Below, piece by piece: positions 1,902-33,747 of a stretch of 64,000 nt of DNA (positions are counted from its first letter, which is position 1; every line of letters begins with the position of its first letter). A program made the translations under genes and the position numbers. This stretch comes from Escherichia coli (lineage in GTDB: Bacteria > Pseudomonadota > Gammaproteobacteria > Enterobacterales > Enterobacteriaceae): NCBI RefSeq assembly GCF_013315695.1, contig NZ_CP054353.1; one strand, written 5' to 3'. The notes under the pieces are model-generated. The model was not told the DNA's origin. It was given only the letters and a program-made list of their open reading frames with translations, and did no database searches.

Positions 1902-2484
1902 GTTTATCCCTTTTCTCACGCAGTGCGTTAAAATTACTTAATAATTCATACGTTTCAACCAGCGGTAAGCCGACTACGGCGTGATAGCTGCCATTTATCT
2001 TCCTGACAAAACAGCCACCCAGCCCCTGAATACCGTATGCACCTGCTTTATCTAACGGTTCACCGCTGGCGACATAGCCCGCGATGTCTTCGTCTGTTAA
2101 CGTTCTGAAAGTCACATCGGTGACCACCAGGCAATCGAGAATGTGCTGGCTGTCGGCCAACGCCACTGCCGTCATTACCTGATGGGTCTGACCCGATAAT
2201 TTGCGCAACATCTGCGCCGCATGCTCTGCGTCGCGCGGTTTCTCCAGTACTTCTCCGTTCAGGATAACGATAGTATCCGCACCCAGCACCGGGAGATCCT
2301 GCGCCGTTTGCGCGACACCCGCCTGTGCTTTCTCGCGCGCCAGACGCACAACATACTGCTGCGCGCTCTCCTGCGGCTGACGCTGCTCCTCAATGCCCGT
2401 AACAATACGTTCAAAGGTTACGCCAAGTTGCGCAAGTAACTCCTGACGACGCGGAGAACCGGAAGCTAAATACAGAGAAGTCAT
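1891..2484 (-). CDS. yhdE: Maf-like nucleotide pyrophosphatase
   Basis: 197-aa translation [21 protein letters not shown]... (Maf family); position between mreD and rng as in E. coli. Confidence 0.93.
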
Positions 2485-2492
2485 AGAAACCT

Positions 2493-4084
<1,592 letters not shown>

Positions 4085-7589: not shown

Positions 7590-8564
7590 ATGCAGGCGTT
7601 ACTTTTAGAACAGCAGGACGGCAAAACTCTCGCATCAGTACAGACTCTGGACGAAAGTCGCCTGCCGGAAGGCGATGTCACGGTTGATGTTCACTGGTCG
7701 AGCCTGAACTACAAAGATGCGCTGGCAATTACCGGTAAGGGAAAAATCATCCGTAATTTTCCGATGATTCCTGGGATCGATTTTGCCGGAACTGTACGCA
7801 CCAGCGAAGATCCGCGTTTTCATGCCGGTCAGGAGGTGTTACTCACTGGCTGGGGCGTTGGTGAAAACCACTGGGGTGGGCTGGCGGAGCAGGCGCGAGT
7901 GAAAGGTGACTGGCTGGTTGCCATGCCGCAAGGGCTGGACGCGCGTAAAGCAATGATTATCGGTACTGCCGGTTTTACCGCCATGCTGTGTGTGATGGCG
8001 CTGGAAGATGCCGGTGTTCGCCCGCAGGACGGCGAGATTGTCGTAACGGGTGCCAGTGGTGGCGTCGGCAGTACCGCCGTGGCGCTGCTGCATAAGTTGG
8101 GTTATCAGGTCGTTGCCGTTTCCGGTCGCGAAAGTACCCATGAATATCTGAAAAGTTTAGGAGCCAGCCGTATTCTCCCTCGCGATGAGTTTGCCGAATC
8201 CCGTCCTCTGGAAAAACAAGTCTGGGCTGGGGCAATTGACACCGTTGGCGACAAAGTGCTGGCAAAAGTGCTGGCGCAAATGAATTACGGCGGCTGCGTG
8301 GCGGCCTGTGGTCTGGCGGGTGGTTTTACTCTGCCAACCACGGTCATGCCATTTATTCTGCGTAATGTCCGTTTGCAAGGGGTGGATTCAGTAATGACGC
8401 CACCAGCACGCCGCGCACAAGCCTGGCAGCGACTGGTCGCCGATTTACCGGAATCATTCTATACCCAGGCGGCAAAAGAGATATCTCTGGCAGATGCACC
8501 GAAGTTTGCCGAGGCCATCATTAATAACCAGATCCAGGGTCGCACGCTGGTGAAGGTTAACTAA
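7590..8564 (+). CDS. acuI: Acryloyl-CoA reductase / quinone oxidoreductase-like (MDR superfamily)
   Basis: 324-aa translation MQALLLEQQDGKTLASVQTLDESRLPEGDVTVD... with Gly-rich nucleotide-binding motif (VTGASGGVGS); matches remembered YhdH/AcuI. Confidence 0.92.
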   Translation: MQALLLEQQDGKTLASVQTLDESRLPEGDVTVDVHWSSLNYKDALAITGKGKIIRNFPMIPGIDFAGTVRTSEDPRFHAGQEVLLTGWGVGENHWGGLAEQARVKGDWLVAMPQGLDARKAMIIGTAGFTAMLCVMALEDAGVRPQDGEIVVTGASGGVGSTAVALLHKLGYQVVAVSGRESTHEYLKSLGASRILPRDEFAESRPLEKQVWAGAIDTVGDKVLAKVLAQMNYGGCVAACGLAGGFTLPTTVMPFILRNVRLQGVDSVMTPPARRAQAWQRLVADLPESFYTQAAKEISLADAPKFAEAIINNQIQGRTLVKVN

Positions 8565-8600
8565 CCATTTAGCAAGGATTAATAAGAGAGGGAACTCATT

Positions 8601-9431
8601 TTGAAATCATTATTCAATCGGTTAACGGGAAAAGCGGTTAGCCGGACAGCTTTCGTCGAACATCTTGGTCATGAAGTTGTACAACATCATCCAAACTGGA
8701 AAGTCATGATTTCGACTGACCATAAATTGATGCGCATTGATACGGGTCACCAAACGGTGGAAATCACTCTTGATGATGCCTACAAACGTTATCAAGCCGC
8801 ACCAGACCCGCTGGAAGAAGTGGCTGCAGATATGCTGAAACAGCTTGCAGAAATGCTGCCGACCGGGCGCTGTATTGTTCCGGTGATTAAAGAAAAAGCC
8901 TGGCTGGATACCGTTCGCCAACAGCTTAGCCAGTATGAATCTGATCCAGAGATCCTCAACGCCTCGCTGGATTTTGCCTGGGAAGACTTTAACGATGAGT
9001 TAATTATCTTGTTTGCTGAAGATGGTAGCGAAACCATGCGCTATCTGATGCGCTACGAAGTGACCATTGACCGCGAACAAGCCATCAATAATTTGAAGCA
9101 AATATTGCCGGAAGTTTCGGCTGAAATCGTTGATACAGGCGCAAACGCTGGAAAAGTTGCCGTTATCTCCGCAGGGGGTACTTATGAGCCCAGTCTGATG
9201 CTCATTGACGATCTTTGGGTGCAATCACCCGATCCTGAATGCGGCGACCTGTTAGTGACTGTTCCCTCCAGAGGAAAACTGTTTTTCACCTACAATGATC
9301 AGCCAGCAAATCTCAGCGCATTACGACAGTTAACAGAACAATGCTTCCGTGAGGATGACCATCCTCTGACAACACAGATATTCATCCGCCGTAACGGTCA
9401 CTTTTATCCCTGGGTAGAAACCTTGCATTAA
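8601..9431 (+). CDS. Hypothetical protein, 276 codons, function unknown
   Basis: Long uninterrupted ORF 36 bp downstream of acuI, TTG start preceded by a purine-rich stretch (agagaggg); first in-frame ATG is at 8706. Composition is protein-like, with some rare codons (AGA, ATA, CGA). A hairpin plus T-tract lies about 65 bp downstream. I do not recognise the product. Confidence 0.45.
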   Translation: MKSLFNRLTGKAVSRTAFVEHLGHEVVQHHPNWKVMISTDHKLMRIDTGHQTVEITLDDAYKRYQAAPDPLEEVAADMLKQLAEMLPTGRCIVPVIKEKAWLDTVRQQLSQYESDPEILNASLDFAWEDFNDELIILFAEDGSETMRYLMRYEVTIDREQAINNLKQILPEVSAEIVDTGANAGKVAVISAGGTYEPSLMLIDDLWVQSPDPECGDLLVTVPSRGKLFFTYNDQPANLSALRQLTEQCFREDDHPLTTQIFIRRNGHFYPWVETLH

Positions 9432-12218: not shown

Positions 12219-13265
12219 CTAACGGTAGCTTGCAATTTCCGCTTTCAACGCGCTAATTTCAGCATCGCCATCAACAATTCCCAGCTCAAAGCAGTATGTC
12301 TTTGTTTCCCCTGGCTCTATAAAGGGCAGACGCCCCTGCGCTCGTTCTTTATCACGACCGTCAGGAAAACTATTGCTGACCTCCAGCCCCATAACATATT
12401 CACCCGCGCCTAAATTTTTCCAGTGGATAAAGTTGGGTAGCTGCATGGTGTCGAATTTCTCGTAAATTCCCCACCCCAGTTCGGCGTTCACCAGCGCAAC
12501 TTTACTCATCCCCTGACTGTCGCTATTCAACGTGAGATAGTAAACCTGCTCGTCAAAACCGGGCTGTGGGGTACAAATCTCCAGATGACTGGTTAACCCT
12601 TCCGCCGCATGCGGGGTTCGTGGCGTTACGCTTTTAGCCGACAGCAAGATTTCTGCCTGTGGCGATAATAAAGGCCAGCCGTAATTAAAGTGATAAAGAA
12701 TTTGCAGCGGCTGGCGGGTGAAACCATGATTAGTCACCTTGTCTTCAATGCGCAGCACATTTTCGCCATAACGGCAGCGAATGGTCCTTTCCAGCGTCAG
12801 ATTTTCACCGAACAATCGTGTTTCCCGTACTTTGCCATTGATGACAAATTCAATGCCGTCGTCGGTCCGTTCTGTGCGATACCCCACCTCTTCTGCTGGA
12901 GTCGCAGCCAAACGCCCGTGTAACCCCAGCGTTTCTCCGTTATCCTCACAGGGCGTGCCAATGTAGCTAAGTCCGCAGGTAGTCAGTAACCCCGCGTAGA
13001 AGCTACGTAAAAACCCGTTGCCCTGAGACTCAAAAAAAGCGGGGGCGACAATGCCGTTGGGGGTGATAAAAGAGAGCGCAGTATCCTTGTAGCTGGCCCA
13101 TGCAATATCCAGCGCGCGATCTTTTACCACCGTAAATGCCAGTCCCGCACCAGTACGGACATCAAACGCTTCTGTCCCCTTTGCTCTGCCACTACGTAAC
13201 TCATAGTGTTTAATTCCGGCAACCTGCGAGAGATCGCCAATCCACGACCAAATTTCGTTTTTCAT
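12219..13265 (-). CDS. Island protein, 348 aa; possibly aldose-1-epimerase (mutarotase)-like, assignment tentative
   Basis: Complete ORF whose stop/start overlaps the start of the downstream kinase gene (13262..13265), i.e. operon-coupled. No signal peptide or transmembrane segment seen. Family call is impression only. Confidence 0.65.
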   Translation of the reverse strand: MKNEIWSWIGDLSQVAGIKHYELRSGRAKGTEAFDVRTGAGLAFTVVKDRALDIAWASYKDTALSFITPNGIVAPAFFESQGNGFLRSFYAGLLTTCGLSYIGTPCEDNGETLGLHGRLAATPAEEVGYRTERTDDGIEFVINGKVRETRLFGENLTLERTIRCRYGENVLRIEDKVTNHGFTRQPLQILYHFNYGWPLLSPQAEILLSAKSVTPRTPHAAEGLTSHLEICTPQPGFDEQVYYLTLNSDSQGMSKVALVNAELGWGIYEKFDTMQLPNFIHWKNLGAGEYVMGLEVSNSFPDGRDKERAQGRLPFIEPGETKTYCFELGIVDGDAEISALKAEIASYR

Positions 13266-14224
13266 TGTGCTGCTTCCCGAATGGACATGTCATGGCGCTG
13301 GATGAACGCTTCGATTTCCGCAAGGCGAGACGTTCCCTCCATTGGGCCACGTCGGGTTACCGCCAGTGCACCGCAGGCGTTGGCATATTGTAATGCCCGA
13401 TGGGCGTCAAACCCTAGCTGGCGGCAGGCAATCCACGCGCCACCAAAACAGTCTCCCGCACCGGTCGGGTCAACTTCTTCCACCGGATAGCTCTCAACAT
13501 GAAACTGCTCATTCGCGGAGTAGTAACTGGCACCTTGATTGCCGCGCTTCACAATCACCTCTTTAACACCTTCTTCAAGAAAACCAGCGATTGCACGCTC
13601 CGGTGTCGAGTGTGGCGACAAGAGCAACACTTCTCCCTCGCTGGGCATATAGATATCTGTTAACTCAAGAACAAAGTGGAGGGCGTCACGCATTTCTGGA
13701 ATATCGAGCATCTCTTTCCGAATATTAGGGTCAAAAGAAATAACGCCACCATTCTCTTTTACAATGGTTACCGCTTTCTTTACTGCGTCTACCATATGGA
13801 ATGAAAACAGGGATGAACCCATAATATGAAAATGGGTACAGTCCTTCAGAATATTTTCATCAACATGCTGCGCCGATAATTTACCGCAAGCGGCATTCTT
13901 GATATTAAAAATAAAATCGCGATCGCCAGAGTTATGATAAGTAACAAAGGCACTCCCGGTAGCTTCCAGAGGTAAGACTGAAATCCCCCTGATATCCACA
14001 CCGTCAGCAGCCAGACGATGTATATTAATATCACCAAAGCCATCATTCCCCACACAGCTAATGATGCCGCACGGAACGCCAAGACGTGTCACCTGGTCGA
14101 TAAAAATAGCGGGTGCGCCACTGGGATAAGGGCCGTTCCAGATACCTGGTTGATCAAATGGCTGGCCGATTTTACTCGCCATAATTTCAACCAGAATTTC
14201 TCCAATTGTGAAGACCTTACTCAT
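13262..14224 (-). CDS. pfkB/ribokinase-family sugar (phosphate) kinase, copy 1
   Basis: 320-aa translation with the family's C-terminal signature DPTGAGDCFGGA and an N-terminal Gly-rich substrate region. Confidence 0.85.
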   Translation of the reverse strand: MSKVFTIGEILVEIMASKIGQPFDQPGIWNGPYPSGAPAIFIDQVTRLGVPCGIISCVGNDGFGDINIHRLAADGVDIRGISVLPLEATGSAFVTYHNSGDRDFIFNIKNAACGKLSAQHVDENILKDCTHFHIMGSSLFSFHMVDAVKKAVTIVKENGGVISFDPNIRKEMLDIPEMRDALHFVLELTDIYMPSEGEVLLLSPHSTPERAIAGFLEEGVKEVIVKRGNQGASYYSANEQFHVESYPVEEVDPTGAGDCFGGAWIACRQLGFDAHRALQYANACGALAVTRRGPMEGTSRLAEIEAFIQRHDMSIREAAQ

Positions 14225-14245
14225 ATGATTAATTCCTTGAAATGA

Positions 14246-15235
14246 TTAGCTGCGTTTTCTTTTATTTCTTACGTCAAAATAAACGGCTACAAGAATGACT
14301 AATCCTTTAACCACCATCTGATAGAAATAGGGAACGTTCATTAAGTTCATGCCATTATTAATAACGCCGATGGTTAATGCCCCGATTACCGTCCCCACCA
14401 CGGTTCCATAGCCGCCGTTCAGGCTGGTGCCTCCCAGTACAGCCGCAGCAATAGCATCCAGTTCGTAGCTCAACGCGGAATTCGGTTGCCCGGAATAGAG
14501 GCGTGAGGCGAGGATCATCCCGCTGATACCTGCCAGCACAGCTGTAATCATAAAGACTTTTATTTTCAAGCGGGTGACATTTATCCCTGAATAAACTGCC
14601 GCTTCTTTATTACCACCAGTGATATAAATCTTTCGTCCAAAGGTTGTTTTAGTAAGAATGAAATGGTTAATCAGCAATAAGATAATTAATATCCAGATTG
14701 GAATAGGTATATAGAGAAATTCTCCATTCCCCAGCGCCAGAAAGGCATCATCTTTAATCATGATGGGCATACCATCGGTCACTATATAAGCGATACCACG
14801 GAAGATCCCCATAGTAGCAACGGTGACAATAAACGACGGGATCCCCGCTATAGCCGTCAAGCCACCATTTATCATCCCCAGAGCCAGGGCTGCAATAATG
14901 GATAATGGGACCAATAAAATAAATGGAATTCCCCATGAAGCCCCAAGCGCAGCAAATGTGCCAATCAATGCAATGGTTGAACCAACCGATAAATCAATAT
15001 CGCCAAGCAAAAGTACGTAAGTCATTCCATAGGCGGTAATTGCAATTATCGAAACCTGAAGAATAATATTAGTAATGTTATTGGCGGTAAAAAAACTGTC
15101 ATTAATAAAACTGAACAGAATGATTAACACCACCATTCCACTGAGGATACCGCCATATTGCCTGAAGACTTTTTTAAAATTATTTGCAATGGGAATTTCC
15201 GAAGGTTTCGGACTGGCAAGAGTTTTCTCTGTCAT
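14246..15235 (-). CDS. ABC sugar transporter permease (RbsC-like)
   Basis: 329-aa highly hydrophobic protein with multiple predicted membrane spans; immediately downstream of, and contiguous with, the ATPase gene. Confidence 0.85.
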   Translation of the reverse strand: MTEKTLASPKPSEIPIANNFKKVFRQYGGILSGMVVLIILFSFINDSFFTANNITNIILQVSIIAITAYGMTYVLLLGDIDLSVGSTIALIGTFAALGASWGIPFILLVPLSIIAALALGMINGGLTAIAGIPSFIVTVATMGIFRGIAYIVTDGMPIMIKDDAFLALGNGEFLYIPIPIWILIILLLINHFILTKTTFGRKIYITGGNKEAAVYSGINVTRLKIKVFMITAVLAGISGMILASRLYSGQPNSALSYELDAIAAAVLGGTSLNGGYGTVVGTVIGALTIGVINNGMNLMNVPYFYQMVVKGLVILVAVYFDVRNKRKRS

Positions 15236-16735
15236 TTAACGTACTCCTGTTGCAGCGGTCATTACCTGTGTCTGCGTTAAATTTTCACATGAATAAATAT
15301 CGGCAATCGTTTTATTACGCATTACCACCAGACGATCGCTAAGTGCCATGACTTCTGGCAGTTCAGAGGACACCAGAATAATTGCTGTCCCTGCCGCAGC
15401 CAGTTGACGTATCACGTTATAGATTTCAAATTTTGCGCCGACATCCACTCCGCGCGTTGGCTCATCGAGCAATAAAATACGCGGAGTTTTCTCCAGCCAC
15501 TTCGATAACACGATTTTCTGTTGATTACCGCCGCTCAGTGCTCCCACTGCCTGATGTACAGAACTCACTTTAGTGTTCATTCTGGCAATTGATTGCAGCG
15601 TCTTCGCCTCTTCTTGTCGGTGATTGATAAGTCCTATCCGCGAAGCGTTATATTGAAACGCCACATGGTGCGTGTTCATATTGACGTCGTGCATCAGCAC
15701 TAACCCTTCTTCCTTGCGGTTTTCGGTCACAAAAGCAATGCCATGATCAATAGCCTGTTTGGGATTAGCGATCCTGACTTCCTTACCATCAATCAACACA
15801 GTCCCGTGATACGAAACGAGGCCAAATAGCGCCTTCATCACATCGGAACGCCCGGCCCCCACCAGGCCAAAAAATCCGAGGACTTCCCCCGGACGCACAG
15901 CGAAACTGACCTCTTTAAAAAGCGAAGGATGGGAAAGGTTTTTTACTTCCAGTTTTGCAGGAACATTTTCATCCGGCTTTTCCCCAAGACGTGCTGGCCA
16001 AATATTTTTCATTTCCCGACCAACCATTTGGGCAATCAAATGCTGGATATCACTGTTTTTCTTTTCATGCGTAGCGATATACTCACCGTCGCGGATCACC
16101 GAAATATCATCTGAAATCCGCATAATTTCATCCATGCGATGAGAGATATAAATAACCGCACAACCTCGCTGCTTTAATTTCTCAATAATGTTAAACAGAA
16201 TCTCTGCTTCATTATCACTTAGCGAAGATGTCGGTTCATCCATAATCACGACATCTGCTGCATAGCTTAAGGCTTTGGCAATTTCTACCAGTTGCCTATG
16301 TGCCATCGACATATTGCCGACCATTTCCAGCGGATCCAGTGGGATGCCCAGTTCCGCGAGGAGATTCTGGCAATCTGCGAGCATTTTTTTATCGTTAATA
16401 ATGCCAAAACGTCGCGGTTCATTATTGGCATAAATATTTTCCGCCACGGTCATATTATTACTCAGGCTCAGTTCCTGAAAAATAATCGCAATCCCTAACT
16501 GGCGAGAATGCTGCGGATTATTAATGGTGATGGTTTCACCACGTAGTGTTATCGTTCCCTGGGTTGGCGGATAAACACCGGCGAGTATTTTCATTAATGT
16601 CGATTTACCGGCACCATTCTCGCCTAATAAAGTATGCACCCGCCCTTTACGTAAAGAGAGGGTAATATCTTTTAATGCCTGAACATGACCAAATGTCTTC
16701 GCAATATGCGAAACATCAAGAATAACATCCGTCAT
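15236..16735 (-). CDS. ABC sugar transporter ATP-binding protein with duplicated nucleotide-binding domains (RbsA-like)
   Basis: 499-aa translation with two Walker A motifs (GENGAGKST; GLVGAGRS) and two ABC signature motifs (LSGGNQQK-type), typical of monosaccharide importer ATPases. Confidence 0.9.
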   Translation of the reverse strand: MTDVILDVSHIAKTFGHVQALKDITLSLRKGRVHTLLGENGAGKSTLMKILAGVYPPTQGTITLRGETITINNPQHSRQLGIAIIFQELSLSNNMTVAENIYANNEPRRFGIINDKKMLADCQNLLAELGIPLDPLEMVGNMSMAHRQLVEIAKALSYAADVVIMDEPTSSLSDNEAEILFNIIEKLKQRGCAVIYISHRMDEIMRISDDISVIRDGEYIATHEKKNSDIQHLIAQMVGREMKNIWPARLGEKPDENVPAKLEVKNLSHPSLFKEVSFAVRPGEVLGFFGLVGAGRSDVMKALFGLVSYHGTVLIDGKEVRIANPKQAIDHGIAFVTENRKEEGLVLMHDVNMNTHHVAFQYNASRIGLINHRQEEAKTLQSIARMNTKVSSVHQAVGALSGGNQQKIVLSKWLEKTPRILLLDEPTRGVDVGAKFEIYNVIRQLAAAGTAIILVSSELPEVMALSDRLVVMRNKTIADIYSCENLTQTQVMTAATGVR

Positions 16736-16795
16736 AATGACCTCGGTGTCACAACAAAACGTCGATAACGTTTTGTTGTGAAATGAAGATGTTTA

Positions 16796-17686
16796 TCATT
16801 TACCTGTATAAACGCCGGGTTGTACCGGGATCATTTTTTCTACCGGTTTACCATTGAGGTGATCAACAGCGGCATCAATGGCTTTAGCACCCATTTGATC
16901 GGGATATTGCCGAATCACGGCCGCAAACGTTTTTTCACTGTCAACGGCATCACGCGCTTCTTTCATGCCGTCAAAACCAATGATTTTGATGTTGTCGTTA
17001 TGCGCAGATTTCGCTGCGATAACCGCTGCCAGCGCCGCATCATCACCAAAGCCAAACAGACCATTCAGGTTGGCATTTGCCTGCATAATGTTTTGCGCAG
17101 TCGTTAACGCTTCAGCCCGCGTAATACCAGGCTGTTCAGCAACAATTTTAATATCCGGTGTATCGCTTAACCCTTTCTTAAAACCATCAACGCGCGCAAC
17201 CACCGATTGTAATGCCGGATAAGAAATAATGGCTACAGTACCTTTACCATTCAAAAGTTTGCCCATTAACTTGCCTGCTTCAACGCCTCCCGCGTAGTTA
17301 TCGGTCGCAACATGCGATACGACCGGAACGCCTTCCGCAGCGACGTCGACGGTGATAACGGGAATACCGGCCTTATCGGCTTTAATTATCGCCGCCTGGA
17401 CGCCTTTCGAATCGACCGGAGAGATAATAATGGCATCCACTTTTTTAGTAATAAAATCCTCAACATCAGAAAGTTGTTTGTTTAAATCCTGATTGGCAAT
17501 AGAGACACTTAAATTGACATTGTCTTTTTTTGCCTCTTCTTTCATGGCATTCGCAAGATCAATATAGAAAGGATGTTGCTGTGTTAATAATGACGCACCA
17601 ATTTTATACTCTTTTGCCAACGAGCTTTGCGAGAACAATGCCAGGCTCACCAACATAGCTGAACCAAGTAATTTAATATTTTTCAT
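16796..17686 (-). CDS. Periplasmic sugar-binding protein (RbsB-like)
   Basis: 296 aa with N-terminal signal peptide (MKNIKLLGSAMLVSLALFSQSSLA) and periplasmic-binding-protein-like sequence. Confidence 0.85.
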   Translation of the reverse strand: MKNIKLLGSAMLVSLALFSQSSLAKEYKIGASLLTQQHPFYIDLANAMKEEAKKDNVNLSVSIANQDLNKQLSDVEDFITKKVDAIIISPVDSKGVQAAIIKADKAGIPVITVDVAAEGVPVVSHVATDNYAGGVEAGKLMGKLLNGKGTVAIISYPALQSVVARVDGFKKGLSDTPDIKIVAEQPGITRAEALTTAQNIMQANANLNGLFGFGDDAALAAVIAAKSAHNDNIKIIGFDGMKEARDAVDSEKTFAAVIRQYPDQMGAKAIDAAVDHLNGKPVEKMIPVQPGVYTGK

Positions 17687-17721
17687 AAATAATCCTCATT
17701 GTTTTTGTAGGGTACAACATC

Positions 17722-18603
<882 letters not shown>

Positions 18604-18697
18604 TTACAAAATGAAGAAAGAGAATCTTCACTTTCATTTTGAAAGCAAACTAGCACAGCAAAAGCGGCAAAAAGCGTGATGCATGTCGAATATCATC

Positions 18698-18722
18698 AAA
18701 ATAACTTACAAAAAATAACTTA
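18698..18722. repeat. Tandem direct repeat aaaataactta (two copies, 14-bp register) in the divergent island control region
   Basis: Exact 11-bp repeat at 18698..18708 and 18712..18722, between the divergent aldolase operon and the DeoR-family regulator gene. Confidence 0.35.
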
Positions 18723-18917
18723 ATTTGTTTTTTACTTTGTAAGTGAAACCAATGACACCTCTGCATAAATATGAATATATTCATTTATTTTTCAATGTAT
18801 TAAGCTATTTTCGTTGCGATTTTTGACCCATGATTTTCTTTTCGAATTGTCGATATTATTGAAGGGTAACTTTCAAAGAAAAATACAAGGGGCTATAGTG
18901 TTACGCATTAAAGGCCA

Positions 18918-19748
18918 ATGAAGAGTGTTAACGTGCCGAGAAAATCGTCTAACCTACTGAAACGCAGATTAAAAATTGCAGAAATTGTTGCCGCCCAGGG
19001 TGAAATCAAAGTTGATGACTTATCTGCGCAACTTGGTGTCTCTAGCGTGACGATCCGCGGCGATCTCAGTTATCTGGAGCAACAGGGATATTTAAAGCGA
19101 TCATTTGGCGGTGCTATTGCGACACCACTCTCCTCTGAACCAGAAGCGATACAACCGATCGCGCCGTTGTCTCTGGCACAACAAATGGAAATAGCACGAC
19201 ATTGCGCACGGTTAATTCGGGATCGTGACACGCTATTTCTTGGACATGGGACAATCTGCCGTAAGATCATTCCCTTGCTCAGCGAAGTGAAAAAACTGCG
19301 TCTGATCACCAACGATCCCGAACATGCGCTGCTGGCAAATCAGTTTATTGATGGCGAAATAATACTGGCTGGCAGTGAAATGCTGCGCCCCGATACCGCA
19401 CTGGCCGGAAAACCTCTCGAACAGGCACTTCAGCATTTCACCATTACACATAGCATTCTGGAAATCAGCCATCTGGATGCTGATGGTACTTTAAATATCA
19501 ACGTTCCCAGACTTGCCGCTGCCTGGCAGCTCTGTTTCGATAATGCCCAGAATAAGACGGTTATCGTTGCCGCCGATCCTGCGCCATCAACGGCTGCTAT
19601 CGGGCATTTGCATCAAGCAGAAAATGTGATCGTCAGCCGCAGCATTAACGAACAATATCAGCAACAATTGCAGTCGGCTGATTTCGTTATCCTTTATACC
19701 AGTAATGAGTGCTTTACCTGGTCCAATCGCGAAAGGCTTCAGGAATGA
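18918..19748 (+). CDS. DeoR-family transcriptional regulator
   Basis: N-terminal helix-turn-helix pattern ...IAEIVAAQGEIKVDDLSAQLGVSSVTIRGDLSYLEQQGYLKRSFGGA..., as in GlpR/DeoR proteins; transcribed divergently from the transporter/aldolase operon. Confidence 0.8.
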   Translation: MKSVNVPRKSSNLLKRRLKIAEIVAAQGEIKVDDLSAQLGVSSVTIRGDLSYLEQQGYLKRSFGGAIATPLSSEPEAIQPIAPLSLAQQMEIARHCARLIRDRDTLFLGHGTICRKIIPLLSEVKKLRLITNDPEHALLANQFIDGEIILAGSEMLRPDTALAGKPLEQALQHFTITHSILEISHLDADGTLNINVPRLAAAWQLCFDNAQNKTVIVAADPAPSTAAIGHLHQAENVIVSRSINEQYQQQLQSADFVILYTSNECFTWSNRERLQE

Positions 19749-19758
19749 GAGGGGTTTT

Positions 19759-20715
19759 GTGACAATAACTATCTGCGCTATGGGCGAATTGCTGGCCGAG
19801 TTTTTGTCCCGCAACCCACATCAAAAATTCACTCAGCCTGGGGAGTTTATCGGGCCATTTCCCAGCGGTGCACCAGCAATTTTTGCTGCTCAGGTGGCAA
19901 AACTGTCCCATCGGGCCATCTTCTTCGGATGTGTTGGTAATGATGATTTTGGCCGACTCATTATAGAGCGTCTCCGTCATGAAGGTGTCATTACCGATGG
20001 GATTCACGTTATGAACAATGCCGTCACAGGTACGGCGTTCGTGAGTTATCAAAATCCCCAGCAGCGGGATTTCGTCTTTAATATCCCTAACAGCGCCTGC
20101 GGTTTGTTTACTGCCGAGCACATTGATAAGGATCTGCTTAAACAGTGTAACCATCTGCATATTGTGGGCTCATCGTTGTTCTCATTTCGCATGATCGATG
20201 TCATGCGTAAAGCAATAACGACGATCAAATCGGCTGGCGGAACCGTTTCTTTCGATCCCAATATTCGCAAAGAGATGCTGAGCATTCCTGAAATGGCGCA
20301 GGCCCTCGATTATTTGATTGAATATACGGATATTTTTATCCCCAGCGAAAGCGAACTCCCTTTCTTCGCGCGTCACAAAAATCTGTCAGAAGAACAGATT
20401 GTTAGCGATCTTCTCCACGGCGGCGTAAAACATGTGGCGATAAAACGCGCCCAGCGTGGGGCCAGCTATTACAAGCTTAAAAACGGTACATTACACGCCC
20501 AGCATGTTACAGGCCACGATATCGAAATTATCGATCCAACGGGTGCAGGCGACTGCTTTGGCGCAACGTTTATCACTCTTTTCTTATCCGGTTTCCCGGC
20601 ACACAAGGCGCTGCAATATGCAAATGCCAGCGGCGCGCTCGCCGTAATGCAGCAAGGTCCGATGGAAGGGATATCCTCACTGACTGACATTGAAGACTTT
20701 TTGCAGCAGCACTGA
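19759..20715 (+). CDS. pfkB/ribokinase-family sugar (phosphate) kinase, copy 2
   Basis: Paralogue of the 13262..14224 kinase (shared blocks PSGAPAIF, GSSLFSF, SFDPNIRKEML, DPTGAGDCFG, LQYANA.GALAV). Start set at GTG 19759, just after the regulator stop and a gagagggg stretch; the ORF-track start at 19705 overlaps the regulator. Confidence 0.85.
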   Translation: MTITICAMGELLAEFLSRNPHQKFTQPGEFIGPFPSGAPAIFAAQVAKLSHRAIFFGCVGNDDFGRLIIERLRHEGVITDGIHVMNNAVTGTAFVSYQNPQQRDFVFNIPNSACGLFTAEHIDKDLLKQCNHLHIVGSSLFSFRMIDVMRKAITTIKSAGGTVSFDPNIRKEMLSIPEMAQALDYLIEYTDIFIPSESELPFFARHKNLSEEQIVSDLLHGGVKHVAIKRAQRGASYYKLKNGTLHAQHVTGHDIEIIDPTGAGDCFGATFITLFLSGFPAHKALQYANASGALAVMQQGPMEGISSLTDIEDFLQQH

Positions 20716-26235: not shown

Positions 26236-26898
26236 TTATATGACACTTAATTCATTCGTTTGATGAATTAATTTCGTTATGTTTTCATCTGGCATGAACA
26301 TTCTTAATACGTTATCGACCAGTGCGGGTGCTTGTTTATAAAGATCATAACCCGCCATATTCATTAACCAGTTTTGAACAATTCCGCTGAAGGCACCATC
26401 AATAATAATCATCACAACATCTAAATCGAGATTATTTGCTATACAACCTTGTTGCTGACATGCCTGCAATACTTCGCGGAGAGTCTGCGGATTAAAGCCC
26501 ATCTTTTCGCGTATCACTCCCTCTGCCAGCATCTCATCATTAAATTCACATTTGTGATATAAGATTTTCAGCAACGCCTGCTGGCGGGGAATTTTGGCAA
26601 TATATTGCAAGCCAACAATCAATTTTTCACGCAATTGCTGAAACGGGTCATGCTCTAACCCAGCAGTCAAGTGATCCTGGATTAACTCCCGCAATGAAGG
26701 CTGTTGCAACCACATCTCATTAAACAGTTGGGTCTTGTTCTCGAAGTGCCAGTAGATAGCGCCACGCGTAACGTTAGCGGCGTCGGCAATGTCGTTGAGC
26801 GTCGTCTTGCTTACGCCATGCTGCGCAAACTGGGCGATGGCAGTTTCAATCAGTTCTTGCCGGGTCTTCAGAGCTTCGGCTTTGGTTCTTTTTGCCAT
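26236..26898 (-). CDS. acrS: TetR-family repressor of acrEF (AcrS/EnvR)
   Basis: 220-aa translation MAKRTKAEALKTRQELIETAIAQFAQHGVSKTTLNDIADAANVTRGAIYWHFENK... (TetR helix-turn-helix), divergent from acrE. Confidence 0.92.
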   Translation of the reverse strand: MAKRTKAEALKTRQELIETAIAQFAQHGVSKTTLNDIADAANVTRGAIYWHFENKTQLFNEMWLQQPSLRELIQDHLTAGLEHDPFQQLREKLIVGLQYIAKIPRQQALLKILYHKCEFNDEMLAEGVIREKMGFNPQTLREVLQACQQQGCIANNLDLDVVMIIIDGAFSGIVQNWLMNMAGYDLYKQAPALVDNVLRMFMPDENITKLIHQTNELSVI

Positions 26899-27296
26899 GA
26901 TTAATTATTCAGGAAATAAATATATTCGACACAGAGTGAGAAAATAGCGAAGGTTAATCTATCACCTAATGTGTATTTATACGAGAGGCTAATATTGAGT
27001 TGCTATAAATCGTTAAATAAATAATATATATTATTTACCTAAGATACATTCACTACATCAATATATATTTCAATTTACGAGGATTTGATTCTACCTCTTT
27101 CAACCCGCGTCAAAATAAAACAGTAGAATATTAATCTTTTTTTGTGTTTATGTGCCTTGAGACGCCAGTATTCATAACTATTCCTTACATCGACGAATGA
27201 TAATTTGTAGGATAGCGAACTGTATTTTTCTTTCTGCGAGTTAACGCGTTGCCTTTTTGGGTAAATAACGCGCTTTTGGTTTTTTGAGGAATAGTA

Positions 27297-28454
27297 ATGA
27301 CGAAACATGCCAGGTTTTTCCTCCTGCCCTCCTTTATTCTGATCTCCGCGGCTTTAATCGCCGGTTGTAACGATAAGGGAGAAGAGAAAGCTCACGTCGG
27401 TGAACCGCAGGTTACCGTTCATATTGTGAAAACGGCCCCGTTAGAAGTTAAGACTGAATTACCAGGCCGCACCAATGCTTACCGTATAGCCGAAGTTCGC
27501 CCACAGGTTAGCGGGATCGTACTGAGTCGCAATTTCACTGAAGGCAGCGATGTGCAAGCAGGCCAGTCTCTGTACCAGATCGATCCCGCGACCTATCAGG
27601 CAAGTTATGACAGCGCGAAAGGCGAACTGGCGAAAAGTGAAGCCGCCGCCGCCATCGCGCATTTGACGGTAAAACGTTACGTTCCGCTCGTGGGTACGAA
27701 ATACATCAGTCAGCAGGAGTACGACCAGGCCATTGCTGATGCTCGCCAGGCCGATGCCGCCGTGATTGCCGCAAAAGCCACAGTCGAAAGCGCTCGCATC
27801 AATCTCGCTTATACCAAAGTGACTGCGCCAATTAGCGGACGTATCGGCAAATCGACTGTGACCGAAGGCGCTCTTGTCACTAATGGGCAAACGACTGAAC
27901 TGGCGACTGTCCAGCAGCTCGATCCTATCTACGTTGATGTGACCCAATCCAGCAACGATTTTATGAGGCTGAAGCAATCCGTAGAGCAAGGAAATTTGCA
28001 TAAGGAAAACGCCACCAGCAACGTAGAGTTGGTCATGGAGAACGGTCAAACCTATCCCCTGAAAGGTACGCTGCAATTCTCCGATGTGACCGTTGATGAA
28101 AGCACCGGCTCCATAACCCTACGTGCTGTCTTCCCTAACCCGCAACATACGCTTTTGCCGGGTATGTTTGTGCGCGCACGGATTGATGAAGGCGTCCAAC
28201 CTGACGCCATTCTTATCCCGCAACAAGGCGTTAGCCGCACACCACGTGGTGCTGCAACCGTGCTGATTGTTAACAATAAAAGTCAGGTTGAAGCGCGCCC
28301 TGTCGTTGCCAGTCAGGCGATTGGCGATAAGTGGTTGATTAGCGAAGGTCTGAAATCTGGCGATCAAGTCATTGTCAGCGGCCTGCAAAAAGCGCGTCCG
28401 GGAGAGCAGGTTAAAGCCACTACCGATACCCCCGCAGATACTGCATCGAAGTAA
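27297..28454 (+). CDS. acrE: Periplasmic adaptor subunit of the AcrEF-TolC efflux pump
   Basis: 385-aa lipoprotein (signal peptide plus lipobox LIAGC), membrane-fusion-protein family; matches remembered AcrE. Confidence 0.95.
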   Translation: MTKHARFFLLPSFILISAALIAGCNDKGEEKAHVGEPQVTVHIVKTAPLEVKTELPGRTNAYRIAEVRPQVSGIVLSRNFTEGSDVQAGQSLYQIDPATYQASYDSAKGELAKSEAAAAIAHLTVKRYVPLVGTKYISQQEYDQAIADARQADAAVIAAKATVESARINLAYTKVTAPISGRIGKSTVTEGALVTNGQTTELATVQQLDPIYVDVTQSSNDFMRLKQSVEQGNLHKENATSNVELVMENGQTYPLKGTLQFSDVTVDESTGSITLRAVFPNPQHTLLPGMFVRARIDEGVQPDAILIPQQGVSRTPRGAATVLIVNNKSQVEARPVVASQAIGDKWLISEGLKSGDQVIVSGLQKARPGEQVKATTDTPADTASK

Positions 28455-28465
28455 GGTAATCTGAC

Positions 28466-31246
28466 ATGGCAAACTTTTTTATTCGACGACCGATATTTGC
28501 ATGGGTGCTGGCCATTATTCTGATGATGGCGGGCGCACTGGCGATCCTACAATTGCCCGTCGCTCAGTATCCAACCATTGCACCGCCTGCGGTTTCTGTT
28601 TCAGCAAACTATCCGGGCGCTGATGCGCAGACTGTGCAGGATACGGTGACGCAGGTTATCGAACAGAATATGAACGGTATCGATAACCTGATGTATATGT
28701 CCTCCACCAGCGATTCCGCCGGTAGCGTGACAATTACCCTTACCTTCCAGTCCGGGACCGATCCTGATATCGCGCAAGTGCAGGTGCAGAACAAACACCA
28801 GCTCGCCACGCCGTTGCTGCCGCAGGAGGTTCAGCAGCAGGGGATCAGTGTTGAAAAGTCCAGTAGCAGCTATTTGATGGTGGCGGGCTTTGTCTCTGAT
28901 AACCCAGGCACCACACAGGACGATATCTCGGACTATGTGGCCTCTAACGTTAAAGATACGCTTAGCCGTCTGAATGGCGTCGGTGACGTACAGCTTTTCG
29001 GCGCACAGTATGCGATGCGTATCTGGCTGGACGCCGATCTGCTAAACAAATATAAACTGACACCGGTTGATGTGATTAACCAGTTGAAGGTACAGAACGA
29101 TCAGATCGCTGCCGGACAGTTGGGCGGAACGCCAGCGTTACCAGGGCAACAGTTGAACGCCTCGATTATTGCTCAGACGCGGTTAAAAAATCCGGAAGAA
29201 TTCGGCAAAGTGACCTTGCGCGTAAACAGTGACGGCTCGGTGGTACGCCTGAAAGATGTCGCACGGGTTGAACTTGGCGGTGAAAACTATAACGTTATCG
29301 CTCGCATCAACGATAAACCGGCGGCGGGCCTGGGTATTAAGCTGGCAACCGGCGCGAATGCTCTCGATACCGCGAAAGCCATTAAGGCAAAACTGGCGGA
29401 ATTACAGCCATTCTTCCCGCAGGGAATGAAGGTTCTCTACCCTTATGACACCACACCATTCGTCCAGCTTTCTATTCACGAAGTGGTAAAAACGCTGTTC
29501 GAAGCCATTATGCTGGTGTTCCTGGTGATGTATCTGTTCTTGCAGAATATGCGAGCAACGCTGATCCCCACCATTGCGGTACCCGTGGTGTTGTTAGGGA
29601 CGTTTGCCATCCTCGCCGCTTTTGGTTACTCCATCAACACACTAACGATGTTCGGGATGGTGCTTGCCATCGGGCTGCTCGTCGATGATGCGATAGTGGT
29701 GGTGGAGAACGTCGAGCGCGTGATGATGGAGGATAAGCTCCCGCCAAAAGAAGCGACGGAAAAATCGATGTCGCAAATTCAGGGCGCACTGGTGGGTATC
29801 GCGATGGTGCTGTCAGCGGTATTTATTCCAATGGCATTCTTCGGCGGTTCTACTGGGGCAATTTACCGCCAGTTCTCTATCACCATCGTTTCGGCAATGG
29901 CGCTTTCTGTTCTGGTGGCATTGATTCTTACCCCAGCGTTATGTGCAACACTGCTCAAACCCGTCTCTGCTGAGCATCACGAAAATAAGGGCGGTTTCTT
30001 CGGCTGGTTTAATACCACCTTCGATCATAGCGTTAACCACTACACCAACAGCGTCGGCAAAATCCTCGGTTCCACAGGACGATATTTACTGATCTATGCA
30101 CTAATTGTTGCTGGAATGGTGGTGTTGTTTTTACGTCTTCCGTCTTCCTTCTTACCTGAAGAGGATCAGGGAGTCTTTCTGACTATGATTCAGTTACCCG
30201 CTGGCGCGACGCAAGAGCGGACGCAAAAAGTGTTGGATCAAGTGACGGATTACTATCTGAAGAACGAGAAAGCGAACGTAGAAAGTGTCTTTACGGTTAA
30301 CGGCTTTAGCTTCAGCGGCCAGGCACAAAACGCCGGTATGGCCTTCGTCAGTCTGAAACCGTGGGAAGAGCGTAGTGGTGACGAAAACAGTGCGGAAGCG
30401 GTAATCCATCGTGCCAAAATGGAATTGGGCAAGATCCGCGACGGTTTTGTCATTCCATTCAATATGCCAGCCATTGTTGAACTGGGCACGGCAACGGGTT
30501 TCGACTTTGAGTTAATTGATCAGGCTGGGCTGGGTCACGATGCCCTGACCCAGGCCCGTAACCAGTTGCTTGGCATGGCGGCGCAACATCCTGCCAGCTT
30601 AGTCAGCGTGCGTCCTAATGGTCTGGAAGACACCGCGCAGTTTAAACTGGAAGTTGACCAGGAAAAGGCGCAGGCATTAGGTGTTTCACTTTCTGACATC
30701 AATCAGACCATTTCAACGGCGTTGGGTGGGACTTACGTTAACGACTTCATTGACCGTGGTCGCGTGAAAAAGGTGTATGTTCAGGCGGATGCCAAATTCC
30801 GTATGCTGCCAGAAGATGTCGATAAACTTTATGTCCGCAGCGCCAACGGCGAAATGGTGCCATTCTCTGCCTTTACCACTGCACATTGGGTGTATGGCTC
30901 TCCGCGACTGGAGCGCTACAACGGTCTGCCGTCAATGGAGATTCAGGGGGAAGCCGCGCCAGGAACCAGTTCCGGCGATGCCATGGCGTTGATGGAAAAC
31001 ATTGCGTCAAAATTACCGGCGGGCATTGGTTATGACTGGACGGGTATGTCATATCAGGAACGTTTATCGGGAAACCAGGCTCCCGCTCTGGTAGCAATTT
31101 CCTTTGAGGTTGTTTTCCTGTGCCTTGCTGCACTCTATGAAAGCTGGTCAATTCCTGTCTCGGTTATGTTGGTCGTGCCGTTAGGGATTGTCGGCGTGCT
31201 ACTGGCGGCAACACTCTTTAATCAAAAAAATGACGTCTACTTTATG
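28466..31246 (+). pseudogene. acrF: acrF (RND inner-membrane transporter) truncated at its 3' end by IS1
   Basis: Translation matches AcrF from [23 protein letters not shown]... through ...[11 protein letters not shown] (about 927 codons); the frame then runs into the IS1 inverted repeat and stops after 9 IS1-encoded codons (GDAANLLI*). Full-length AcrF is about 1034 aa, so roughly the last 107 codons are absent. Confidence 0.85.
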
Positions 31247-31301
31247 GGTGATGCTGCCAACTTACTGATTTAGTGTATGATGGTGTTTTTGAGGTGCTCC
31301 A

Positions 31302-31577
31302 GTGGCTTCTGTTTCTATCAGCTGTCCCTCCTGTTCAGCTACTGACGGGGTGGTGCGTAACGGCAAAAGCACCGCCGGACATCAGCGCTATCTCTGCTCT
31401 CACTGCCGTAAAACATGGCAACTGCAGTTCACTTACACCGCTTCTCAACCCGGTACGCACCAGAAAATCATTGATATGGCCATGAATGGCGTTGGATGCC
31501 GGGCAACAGCCCGCATTATGGGCGTTGGCCTCAACACGATTTTACGTCACTTAAAAAACTCAGGCCGCAGTCGGTAA
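31302..31577 (+). CDS. insA: IS1 InsA (transposition inhibitor / N-terminal part of the transposase)
   Basis: 91-aa translation [43 protein letters not shown]...; an A6C slippery run (aaaaaac, 31553..31559) lies near its 3' end. Confidence 0.9.
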
Positions 31578-31999
31578 CCTCGCGCATACAGCCGGGCAGT
31601 GACGTCATCGTCTGCGCGGAAATGGACGAACAGTGGGGCTATGTCGGGGCTAAATCGCGCCAGCGCTGGCTGTTTTACGCGTATGACAGGCTCCGGAAGA
31701 CGGTTGTTGCGCACGTATTCGGTGAACGCACTATGGCGACGCTGGGGCGTCTTATGAGCCTGCTGTCACCCTTTGACGTGGTGATATGGATGACGGATGG
31801 CTGGCCGCTGTATGAATCCCGCCTGAAGGGAAAGCTGCACGTAATCAGCAAGCGATATACGCAGCGAATTGAGCGGCATAACCTGAATCTGAGGCAGCAC
31901 CTGGCACGGCTGGGACGGAAGTCGCTGTCGTTCTCAAAATCGGTGGAGCTGCATGACAAAGTCATCGGGCATTATCTGAACATAAAACACTATCAATAA
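31496..31999 (+). CDS. insB: IS1 InsB frame (transposase InsAB' is made by -1 frameshifting from insA)
   Basis: 167-aa translation [64 protein letters not shown]..., matching remembered InsB. Confidence 0.88.
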
Positions 32000-32069
32000 G
32001 TTGGAGTCATTACCCGTTAATAAGAGAGTTAACTTATTAAGCGTTAGCGTTTATTACTGAGGTAACACC

Positions 32070-32291
32070 ATGAAAAGATTAATTCCTGTGGCATTGCTCA
32101 CCGCATTGCTGGCGGGCTGTGCTCACGATTCGCCCTGCGTTCCGGTTTATGATGATCAGGGGCGACTGGTTCACACCAATACCTGTATGAAAGGCACGAC
32201 TCAGGATAACTGGGAAACGGCTGGGGCTATTGCTGGCGGGGCAGCAGCTGTTGCTGGCCTGACGATGGGGATCATCGCTCTGTCGAAATAA
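32070..32291 (+). CDS. yhdV: Small lipoprotein YhdV
   Basis: 73-aa translation MKRLIPVALLTALLAGCAHDS... (lipobox LAGC) with a Gly/Ala-rich C-terminal hydrophobic segment. Confidence 0.85.
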   Translation: MKRLIPVALLTALLAGCAHDSPCVPVYDDQGRLVHTNTCMKGTTQDNWETAGAIAGGAAAVAGLTMGIIALSK

Positions 32292-32295
32292 CTGA

Positions 32296-32320
32296 ACAGA
32301 GCGCGGAGTACCGCGCTCTG
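32296..32320 (+). terminator. Candidate terminator hairpin after yhdV
   Basis: cagagcgcgg agta ccgcgctctg inverted repeat just after the yhdV stop; the following T-tract is weak (tttaa). Confidence 0.4.
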
Positions 32321-32721
32321 TTTAACGATACAGTATCTCACCATAAGATAAAATATTGCTATATTCTGCTGGCTAATTCCCTGCTGATTTAGCATGTTAT
32401 ATCGCGTTATTTCGCTGCTTTCGAAATAACGCATCAATTTAATTTTCACACTTCCCACCAGAATTATACTCACGCTAACAATCATTATTCTGCTTAGTAA
32501 AAAACGCGTAAATATTTTGCGCCAAAATGTGGCGCATGTTTCATTTTCGCACCATTGCGGGGCGCTGTTTTTATTATTTCCTGTCTACACTCAGCTTATT
32601 GCGACGCGAAATCGTGCGCAAAAACTGGCACTACTTTTGCTTATAAGAGGATGGCCACAGACAGGTAAAAGACGTTTCCCAAATGTCCTATAACGATAAT
32701 TTTCGCCTCACAGGAAGCATT

Positions 32722-33747
32722 ATGAAAAAGATGATGATAGCCACACTGGCTGCCGCCAGCGTGCTGCTTGCCGTTGCAAATCAGGCGCATGCTGGCGCGA
32801 CGCTTGATGCCGTACAGAAAAAAGGTTTTGTGCAATGCGGGATCAGTGATGGATTACCTGGGTTCTCTTATGCCGATGCTGACGGTAAATTTTCAGGTAT
32901 TGATGTTGATATTTGTCGTGGTGTTGCCGCTGCTGTATTTGGTGACGACACGAAAGTGAAATATACCCCGCTCACTGCAAAAGAACGCTTCACCGCTTTA
33001 CAGTCAGGGGAGGTGGATTTGCTCTCCCGTAATACGACCTGGACTTCATCTCGCGATGCCGGGATGGGAATGGCATTTACCGGCGTCACTTATTACGACG
33101 GCATTGGCTTCCTGACTCACGATAAAGCGGGACTAAAAAGCGCGAAAGAACTGGATGGCGCAACCGTCTGTATTCAGGCGGGTACTGATACCGAACTCAA
33201 CGTTGCCGATTACTTCAAGGCAAACAATATGAAGTACACACCAGTGACTTTCGATCGCTCTGACGAATCAGCGAAGGCACTGGAATCTGGTCGCTGCGAT
33301 ACGCTGGCCTCGGATCAATCACAACTGTATGCCCTGCGCATCAAATTAAGCAACCCAACTGAATGGATTGTCTTACCGGAAGTTATCTCTAAAGAACCAC
33401 TTGGGCCGGTAGTTCGTCGTGGCGATGATGAATGGTTCTCGATTGTACGCTGGACGCTTTTCGCCATGCTGAATGCTGAAGAGATGGGCATCAATTCCCA
33501 GAACGTCGATGAAAAAGCGGCTAATCCAGCAACGCCCGATATGGCCCATCTGCTGGGTAAAGAGGGCGATTACGGCAAGGATCTGAAGCTGGATAATAAA
33601 TGGGCTTACAACATCATCAAACAGGTGGGTAACTACTCGGAAATTTTTGAGCGTAACGTAGGTTCAGAAAGCCCGCTGAAAATTAAACGTGGGCAAAATA
33701 ATCTCTGGAATAACGGCGGTATTCAGTACGCGCCGCCCGTGCGTTAA
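32722..33747 (+). CDS. yhdW: Periplasmic amino-acid-binding protein of an ABC transporter (intact here)
   Basis: Translation MKKMMIATLAAASVLLAVANQAHAGATLDAVQKKGFVQCG... (signal peptide plus solute-binding fold); first gene of the yhdWXYZ cluster. Confidence 0.9.
   Translation: MKKMMIATLAAASVLLAVANQAHAGATLDAVQKKGFVQCGISDGLPGFSYADADGKFSGIDVDICRGVAAAVFGDDTKVKYTPLTAKERFTALQSGEVDLLSRNTTWTSSRDAGMGMAFTGVTYYDGIGFLTHDKAGLKSAKELDGATVCIQAGTDTELNVADYFKANNMKYTPVTFDRSDESAKALESGRCDTLASDQSQLYALRIKLSNPTEWIVLPEVISKEPLGPVVRRGDDEWFSIVRWTLFAMLNAEEMGINSQNVDEKAANPATPDMAHLLGKEGDYGKDLKLDNKWAYNIIKQVGNYSEIFERNVGSESPLKIKRGQNNLWNNGGIQYAPPVR

Follow-up and report, generated by a model that had tools for sequence, protein, structure and literature searches.

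In the 64,000-nucleotide stretch of Escherichia coli DNA analysed here (the window), the 3′ end of acrF is missing and a complete IS1 element stands in its place. We read this structure as the outcome of two IS1 events that followed one another in a single E. coli clone, and on balance we lean towards an IS1 adjacent deletion, a mechanism that we infer, as the second of them. In the first event, recorded in sister genomes, IS1 entered acrF between codons 927 and 928, splitting the gene and leaving a 9-bp duplication of TACTTTATG. In the second, the 530 bp beyond the right end of IS1 were lost, and the outcome is visible in the window: CGTTAATAA now directly follows the element, and yhdV begins 55 bp past it. 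The phenomenon is ordinary and already known, and the pseudogene is already flagged by RefSeq; as a case of ordinary, well-understood gene decay, the finding matters little by itself. The sister genomes, in turn, form a clean natural allelic series, comprising a simple insertion, a second insertion, an inversion and two deletions on the right-end side of an element, in which one IS1 copy can be followed as it remodels its surroundings.

IS1 and the missing end of acrF

The element is an IS1 of the IS1A type, complete at 768 bp, at 31247..32014 on the forward strand, an assignment based on the sequence, the open reading frame (ORF) list, RefSeq and identity to the copies in the UK blood isolate AF3. 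It opens with GGTGATGCTGCC from 31247 and closes with ...GGAGTCATTACC up to 32014. Its terminal inverted repeats are imperfect and ~23 bp long, as is typical of IS1A: the left repeat (IRL, GGTGATGCTGCCAACTTACTGAT, 31247-31269) and the right repeat (IRR, ...ATCAATAAGTTGGAGTCATTACC, 31992-32014) match at 18 of 23 positions, and the 64-kb window holds a single match to the IRL pattern, against an expectation of zero by chance. The transposase frames are intact, with an insA ORF at 31302-31577, an insB frame at 31496-31999 and, between the insA and insB′ frames, the −1 programmed frameshift at an A6C motif (31553-31559). The copy is 100% identical to both IS1 copies at the same locus in AF3 and to IS1A-annotated copies in other genomes.

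Upstream of the element, the acrF reading frame (28466-31273) encodes 927 AcrF codons up to ...NDVYFM, then eight IS1-encoded residues (GDAANLLI) and a stop codon at 31271-31273. The product of the intact acrF allele has 1,034 amino acids; the remnant, acrF′ (28466..31246, forward strand), therefore holds codons 1-927 of 1034, as judged by translation and by comparison with the intact allele and with AF3. The first base of IS1, a G, is also the next base of acrF, which leaves a 1-bp ambiguity at the left junction; we set this junction at 31246/31247 by the canonical IS1 end. The flanks of the element differ, reading TACTTTATG on the left (31238-31246) and CGTTAATAA on the right (32015-32023), and comparison of the 9 bp on each side revealed no target-site duplication of 8-9 bp.

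The neighbouring genes are intact. The acrEF repressor gene acrS lies at 26236..26898 on the reverse strand, as supported by the ORF list, the RefSeq annotation of a near-identical record and an intergenic comparison with E. coli MS 21-1; acrE, encoding a periplasmic adaptor of 385 amino acids (WP_000160360.1), lies at 27297..28454 on the forward strand. Downstream, yhdV (32070..32291, forward strand; WP_000825639.1) encodes a 73-amino-acid lipoprotein or membrane protein, and its ATG at 32070 is 55 bp from the IS1 right end. These 55 bp (32015..32069, forward strand), identified by alignment to the intact sequence, are all that survives of a 252-bp acrF–yhdV intergenic region, and they include the yhdV ribosome-binding region. 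On the near-identical MSB1_4I record, RefSeq lists acrF among the pseudogenes ('incomplete; missing C-terminus') and, next to it, an IS1A-family transposase with a programmed frameshift. Elsewhere in the window, an eight-gene sugar-utilisation cluster (~12219-20715) lies between accC and yhdT, encoding a DeoR regulator, two sugar kinases, a tagatose-bisphosphate-type aldolase, an ABC transporter and an aldose 1-epimerase. AF3 carries at least the yhdT-proximal end of this cluster (the DeoR regulator and one sugar kinase). To our knowledge, accC and yhdT have no genes between them in K-12.

The missing interval was sized against the intact allele of MS 21-1, the closest intact relative, whose flanks are 99.9% identical to those of the window. 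Exactly 521 bp are absent (positions 2001-2521 of the intact locus L002); 324 bp come from acrF (107 codons and the stop) and the other 197 from the 252-bp intergenic region. Relative to the ancestor carrying the insertion, the loss amounts to 530 bp, since it takes in the duplicate copy of TACTTTATG together with these 521 bp, all to the right of IRR. At the deletion junction (32014..32015), placed by the alignment and by the allelic series, the last base of IS1 directly adjoins sequence that in the intact locus lies 521 bp further on. The start of the deletion coincides with the final nucleotide of the element and shows no microhomology; IS1 is kept and its direct repeats are gone, as is characteristic of adjacent deletions. 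In our scans, the deleted intergenic part held a terminator-like hairpin after acrF and the sole promoter-like match upstream of yhdV; promoter and terminator counts were no higher than in shuffled sequence, so the loss of a 'yhdV promoter' is to be taken as a possibility only.

These results bear out an earlier sequence-only reading of the locus, which had followed the acrF frame to ...NDVYFM and into the left repeat of a complete 768-bp IS1, placed the yhdV start 55 bp past its right end and put the loss at roughly 107 codons including the final transmembrane helices; the count is exactly 107 codons and the stop, and the helices are TM10-12. Its observation that the two 9-bp flanks are not a direct repeat held on re-reading, and the alignment to an intact acrF–yhdV region that it had proposed for sizing the deletion gave the 521 bp reported above. 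Within the window there is neither a flank duplication nor an acrF 3′ segment beyond the element, either of which it had named as grounds for giving up its interpretation.

Sister genomes and the order of events

The window is 99.989% identical to the MSB1_4I chromosome (NZ_LR898874.1; rectal swab, Australia), with seven substitutions in 64 kb and none within 31000-32400. The differing positions are 10184, 18214, 19044, 38818, 42197, 42208 and 42239; four of the seven fall in 23S/16S genes of the adjacent rRNA operon, and three are clustered in a 43-bp span inside the 16S gene. These differences indicate that the window derives from another assembly or from a very closely related isolate. A search of 5426 complete E. 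coli genomes located the exact left junction in two (MSB1_4I and AF3) and the exact right junction in one (MSB1_4I). At the protein level, the exact 935-amino-acid fusion occurs in 31 blocks of public assemblies and its L111 variant in 156. We also tried the 108-amino-acid product of the 3′ ORF as a gauge of assemblies retaining the acrF 3′ end (1587 blocks) and dropped it as unspecific to the clone, because the same product arises from frameshifted assemblies of the long-read-error type and from other disruptions. Several public assemblies (including L032 and L034) split acrF into overlapping ORFs of ~930 and 108 amino acids at an A7 run (window 31217-31223, ...aatcaaaaaaatgacg...), and splits at or near this run suggest frameshifts or long-read homopolymer errors.

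The clone carries this locus in several arrangements. In form B (L020 and L021), the order is acrS, an inverted IS1, acrE and acrF′, the last ending in TACTTTATG and followed by IS1, a second TACTTTATG, the acrF 3′ end (beginning GTGGGC...) and yhdV; here the acrF 3′ end is 100% identical to that of the intact allele. The upstream, inverted element has its own 9-bp duplication, CACCTAATG, on both sides, and lies in the acrS–acrE intergenic region ~335 bp upstream of the acrE start codon, 4.3 kb from the acrF insertion. Its position is 1730-2497 in L020 and from 1730 in L023, with copies at 8372-9139 and 13424-14191 in L007. In form B′ (AF3 and L022), the acrE–acrF′ segment is inverted between two IS1 copies. 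AF3 carries the TACTTTATG duplication split across the inversion: the right end of its second IS1 copy is followed by TACTTTATG-GTGGGCTTGC..., that is, by the second copy of the 9-mer and then the missing acrF 3′ end, and over this 3′ segment and a further 500 bp AF3 matches the intact allele at 100% identity. The 4.3-kb acrE–acrF′ segment is thus found in both orientations, and among the contigs read the un-inverted form appears to be the commoner. L023 is form B with a further deletion, running from the right end (IRR) of the upstream IS1 into acrS. Finally, form C (the window, MSB1_4I, L024 and the scaffold L017) has a single IS1 joined to CGTTAATAA. Across these genomes, the acrE–acrF′ segments have at most two differing sites in 4284 bp.

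The inversion in AF3 and its inverted 9-bp target copies could be read as proof that transposition there was replicative and intramolecular. We rejected this argument, because the un-inverted form B exists and recombination between inverted copies after a simple insertion yields an identical structure.

Together these arrangements indicate where the history of the window began. The same 9-mer stands at both ends of IS1 in L020, L021 and L023 and after IRR in AF3, which identifies the TACTTTATG at 31238..31246 (forward strand) as the retained left copy of the original 9-bp target-site duplication. Because sister genomes show this duplication and an intact acrF 3′ end for the same insertion, the history began as a simple insertion, and the absence of the duplication from the window reflects a later deletion, not a different element. 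The acrS–acrE intergenic region of the window has no IS1 (comparison with MS 21-1; the CACCTAATG site is at 26963-26971), and form C would therefore descend from a single-IS1 ancestor and not from form B. That plain ancestor, with one IS1 and its duplication and no upstream element, was not recovered among the fetched loci, and we infer it from forms B and C.

Point changes extend this order. Compared with intact MS 21-1, acrF′ has two changes, both nonsynonymous: L111H (28797) and V881E (31107). All alleles that carry IS1 have V881E, which places a charged glutamate in a predicted membrane helix, and L111H is confined to part of the deleted form, L024 having the deletion without it. From this distribution the order is insertion with duplication, loss of 530 bp and then L111H. 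The pair is compatible with relaxed constraint on acrF′, a reading for which two changes prove nothing. With both junctions, the two substitutions make handy clone-specific markers.

Origin of the deletion

For the second event, we favour intramolecular replicative transposition, the IS1 'adjacent deletion'. Under this mechanism, transposase-cut IS1 ends would attack a nearby target in cis on the same molecule, here presumably CGTTAATAA (32015-32023); one IS1 copy would remain in the chromosome, fused to the target, and the intervening DNA would leave as a circle with a second copy and be lost. Adjacent deletions that start precisely at an IS terminus and leave the element without direct repeats are typical of IS1 and Tn9, as described in section 5.2.1 of PMC9330008. 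IS1 has been active in the lineage, with at least 40 IS1 places in the MSB1_4I source genome and the further IRR-side deletion into acrS at the second IS1 of L023.

The same product would be expected had a second IS1 entered CGTTAATAA, 521 bp downstream, in direct orientation and had RecA-dependent recombination between the direct 768-bp repeats then deleted one IS1 and 530 bp; sequence alone does not separate this from an adjacent deletion, and we hold it to be a serious possibility that falls short of probable. Such recombination would leave no trace, given the 100% identity of all the IS1 copies found at the locus. In other lineages, the acrF 3′ end and the intergenic region have been IS1 targets repeatedly (at least six same-orientation sites within ~120 bp, the shared orientation being an artefact of a search that joined pieces on one strand), and one further junction lies 23 bp from that of the window. 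The clone itself has acquired a second IS1 close by, flanked by a duplication of its own, and shows an inversion between the two copies; this second element and the apparently commoner un-inverted form suggest that recombination after insertion has been at work at this locus. Against it, this route requires one extra event, and no IS1 at the CGTTAATAA site was found besides the deleted form in the 5426 complete genomes and the fetched loci of the clone, an absence that counts weakly because a double-IS1 intermediate would be short-lived. We give a slight preference to the one-step adjacent deletion, on parsimony and on the classical behaviour of IS1. The sequence-only reading had proposed just these two routes, as opposed to a simple insertion, for the final state, and the 521-bp gap at the IS1 end agrees with it; the refinement is that the history started with a simple insertion carrying the TACTTTATG duplication, seen in L020 and L021 and split in AF3.

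We also considered whether the structure could be an assembly artefact, formed by repeat collapse in an IS1-rich genome, or an IS-independent deletion that abuts IS1 by chance. At least 40 IS1 places make assembly hard, and the window differs from the RefSeq record at seven positions. However, the same two junctions, including the unique joining of IRR to CGTTAATAA, recur in three further independently made assemblies (MSB1_4I, NZ_LR898874.1; GCA_000461175.1, contiguous; GCA_000460675.1, a scaffold), so they are not an artefact of one record, and repeat collapse is unable to make a novel junction. A deletion independent of IS1 that ends at its exact last base without microhomology is itself improbable, and we regard both variants as very unlikely. 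Still more remote is an original insertion at CGTTAATAA upstream of yhdV with a deletion running leftward from the IS1 left end into acrF: the window alone permits either direction and the intergenic region is often targeted by IS1, but sister genomes share the identical acrF left junction with a matching copy of TACTTTATG and a retained acrF 3′ end, and a leftward deletion would need to stop by chance at the exact nucleotide of that insertion.

Whichever route produced the deletion, the structure in the window is one instance of a process that recurs at this locus. In the 5426 complete E. coli genomes, we counted at least nine independent IS1 events within ~1.1 kb spanning the acrF 3′ end, the acrF–yhdV intergenic region and yhdV, three of them with one-sided deletions (loci L003, L004, L006 and L011-L016, placed on positions 1992-3096 of the intact allele L002, equal to window ~31238-32800). 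Six different IS1 sites fall within ~120 bp just past the acrF stop. Simple insertions with duplications of 8-9 bp, found near the acrF stop, between acrF and yhdV, within yhdV and shortly after it, served as positive controls. Among the events lacking a duplication, DA33135 has a one-sided deletion of 1446 bp (yhdV and the start of the next gene), and ECNB21-M121 and three other genomes have lost the whole of acrS–acrEF, with the right junction 23 bp from that of the window.

It is tempting to see the acrF 3′ end and the acrF–yhdV intergenic region as a genuine IS1 hot spot at which acrEF is repeatedly eroded in unrelated E. coli lineages; we put this forward only tentatively, as rather doubtful. 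If true, it could reflect a structural target preference (AT-rich, H-NS-silenced DNA), selection for loss of a silent pump, or both. A different element is found in the acrF of a divergent lineage (~96.5% identity): in GCA_964037445.1 (L030 1568-2993), an IS4-family element with a 442-amino-acid transposase has a 13-bp duplication, CTACTTTATGGTG, that overlaps the 9-mer targeted by IS1 in the clone of the window.

Predicted loss of AcrF function and comparison with known systems

AcrEF serves as a back-up of AcrAB and is normally silent. All that is retained of AcrF′ can be aligned to AcrB, with a numbering offset of one (AcrF 927 = AcrB 928); when intact AcrF is aligned to solved AcrB structures, the break falls at AcrB residue 928, so that everything from residue 929 onward is missing. 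In AcrB, K940, R971 and T978 are members of the proton relay in TM10/TM11; their counterparts in AcrF are residues 939, 970 and 977, all past the break at 927. Lacking TM10-TM12 and with them these residues, AcrF′ is predicted to be non-functional, in agreement with the earlier expectation from the sequence that the AcrEF pump is inactive in this genome. By the same prediction, acrF was already inactivated at the insertion step and the deletion only made the loss irreversible. The clone would thus be unable to recruit AcrF in place of AcrB, and IS-driven activation of acrEF would be futile, even with acrE still intact.

IS1 insertion and adjacent deletion are textbook biology, and the adjacent deletions of IS1 and Tn9 were first described in the gal region of E. 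coli K-12. A literature search on acrF, IS1 and pseudogenes found no published description of this acrF allele, and one on the strain name yielded a single unrelated mention. With the RND (HAE-1) permeases AcrB and AcrF, the product of acrF′ shares homology and the ACR_tran domain (PF00873) recorded on it; unlike them it has no TM10-12, which makes the gene a pseudogene. IS1-driven pseudogene formation and genome erosion have reportedly been seen in IS-rich lineages of E. coli and Shigella. The present case resembles them in its IS1-expanded genome (at least 40 places), in insertional inactivation and in IS-bounded deletions and inversions; it differs from Shigella in that it concerns a commensal or extraintestinal E. 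coli clone, and the comparison covers one locus.

The locus is also known for IS events with the opposite effect. According to work cited in PMC9330008, insertions upstream of acrEF activate the silent operon, involving IS1 and IS2 in E. coli and IS1 and IS10 in Salmonella. These share the locus and the element family with the insertion described here, and the second IS1 of the sister genomes lies in the same acrS–acrE region. Unlike the activating insertions, however, the IS1 of the window lies inside the acrF coding sequence and destroys it; because the permease is truncated, activation by an IS element is impossible in the window. The deletion itself compares with the adjacent deletions of IS1 and Tn9 set out in section 5.2.1 of PMC9330008 in its start at an IS1 terminus, its intact element, the missing flanking direct repeat and a far end at an AT-rich 9-mer. 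From these it shows no structural difference, recombination between two IS1 copies yielding the same product.
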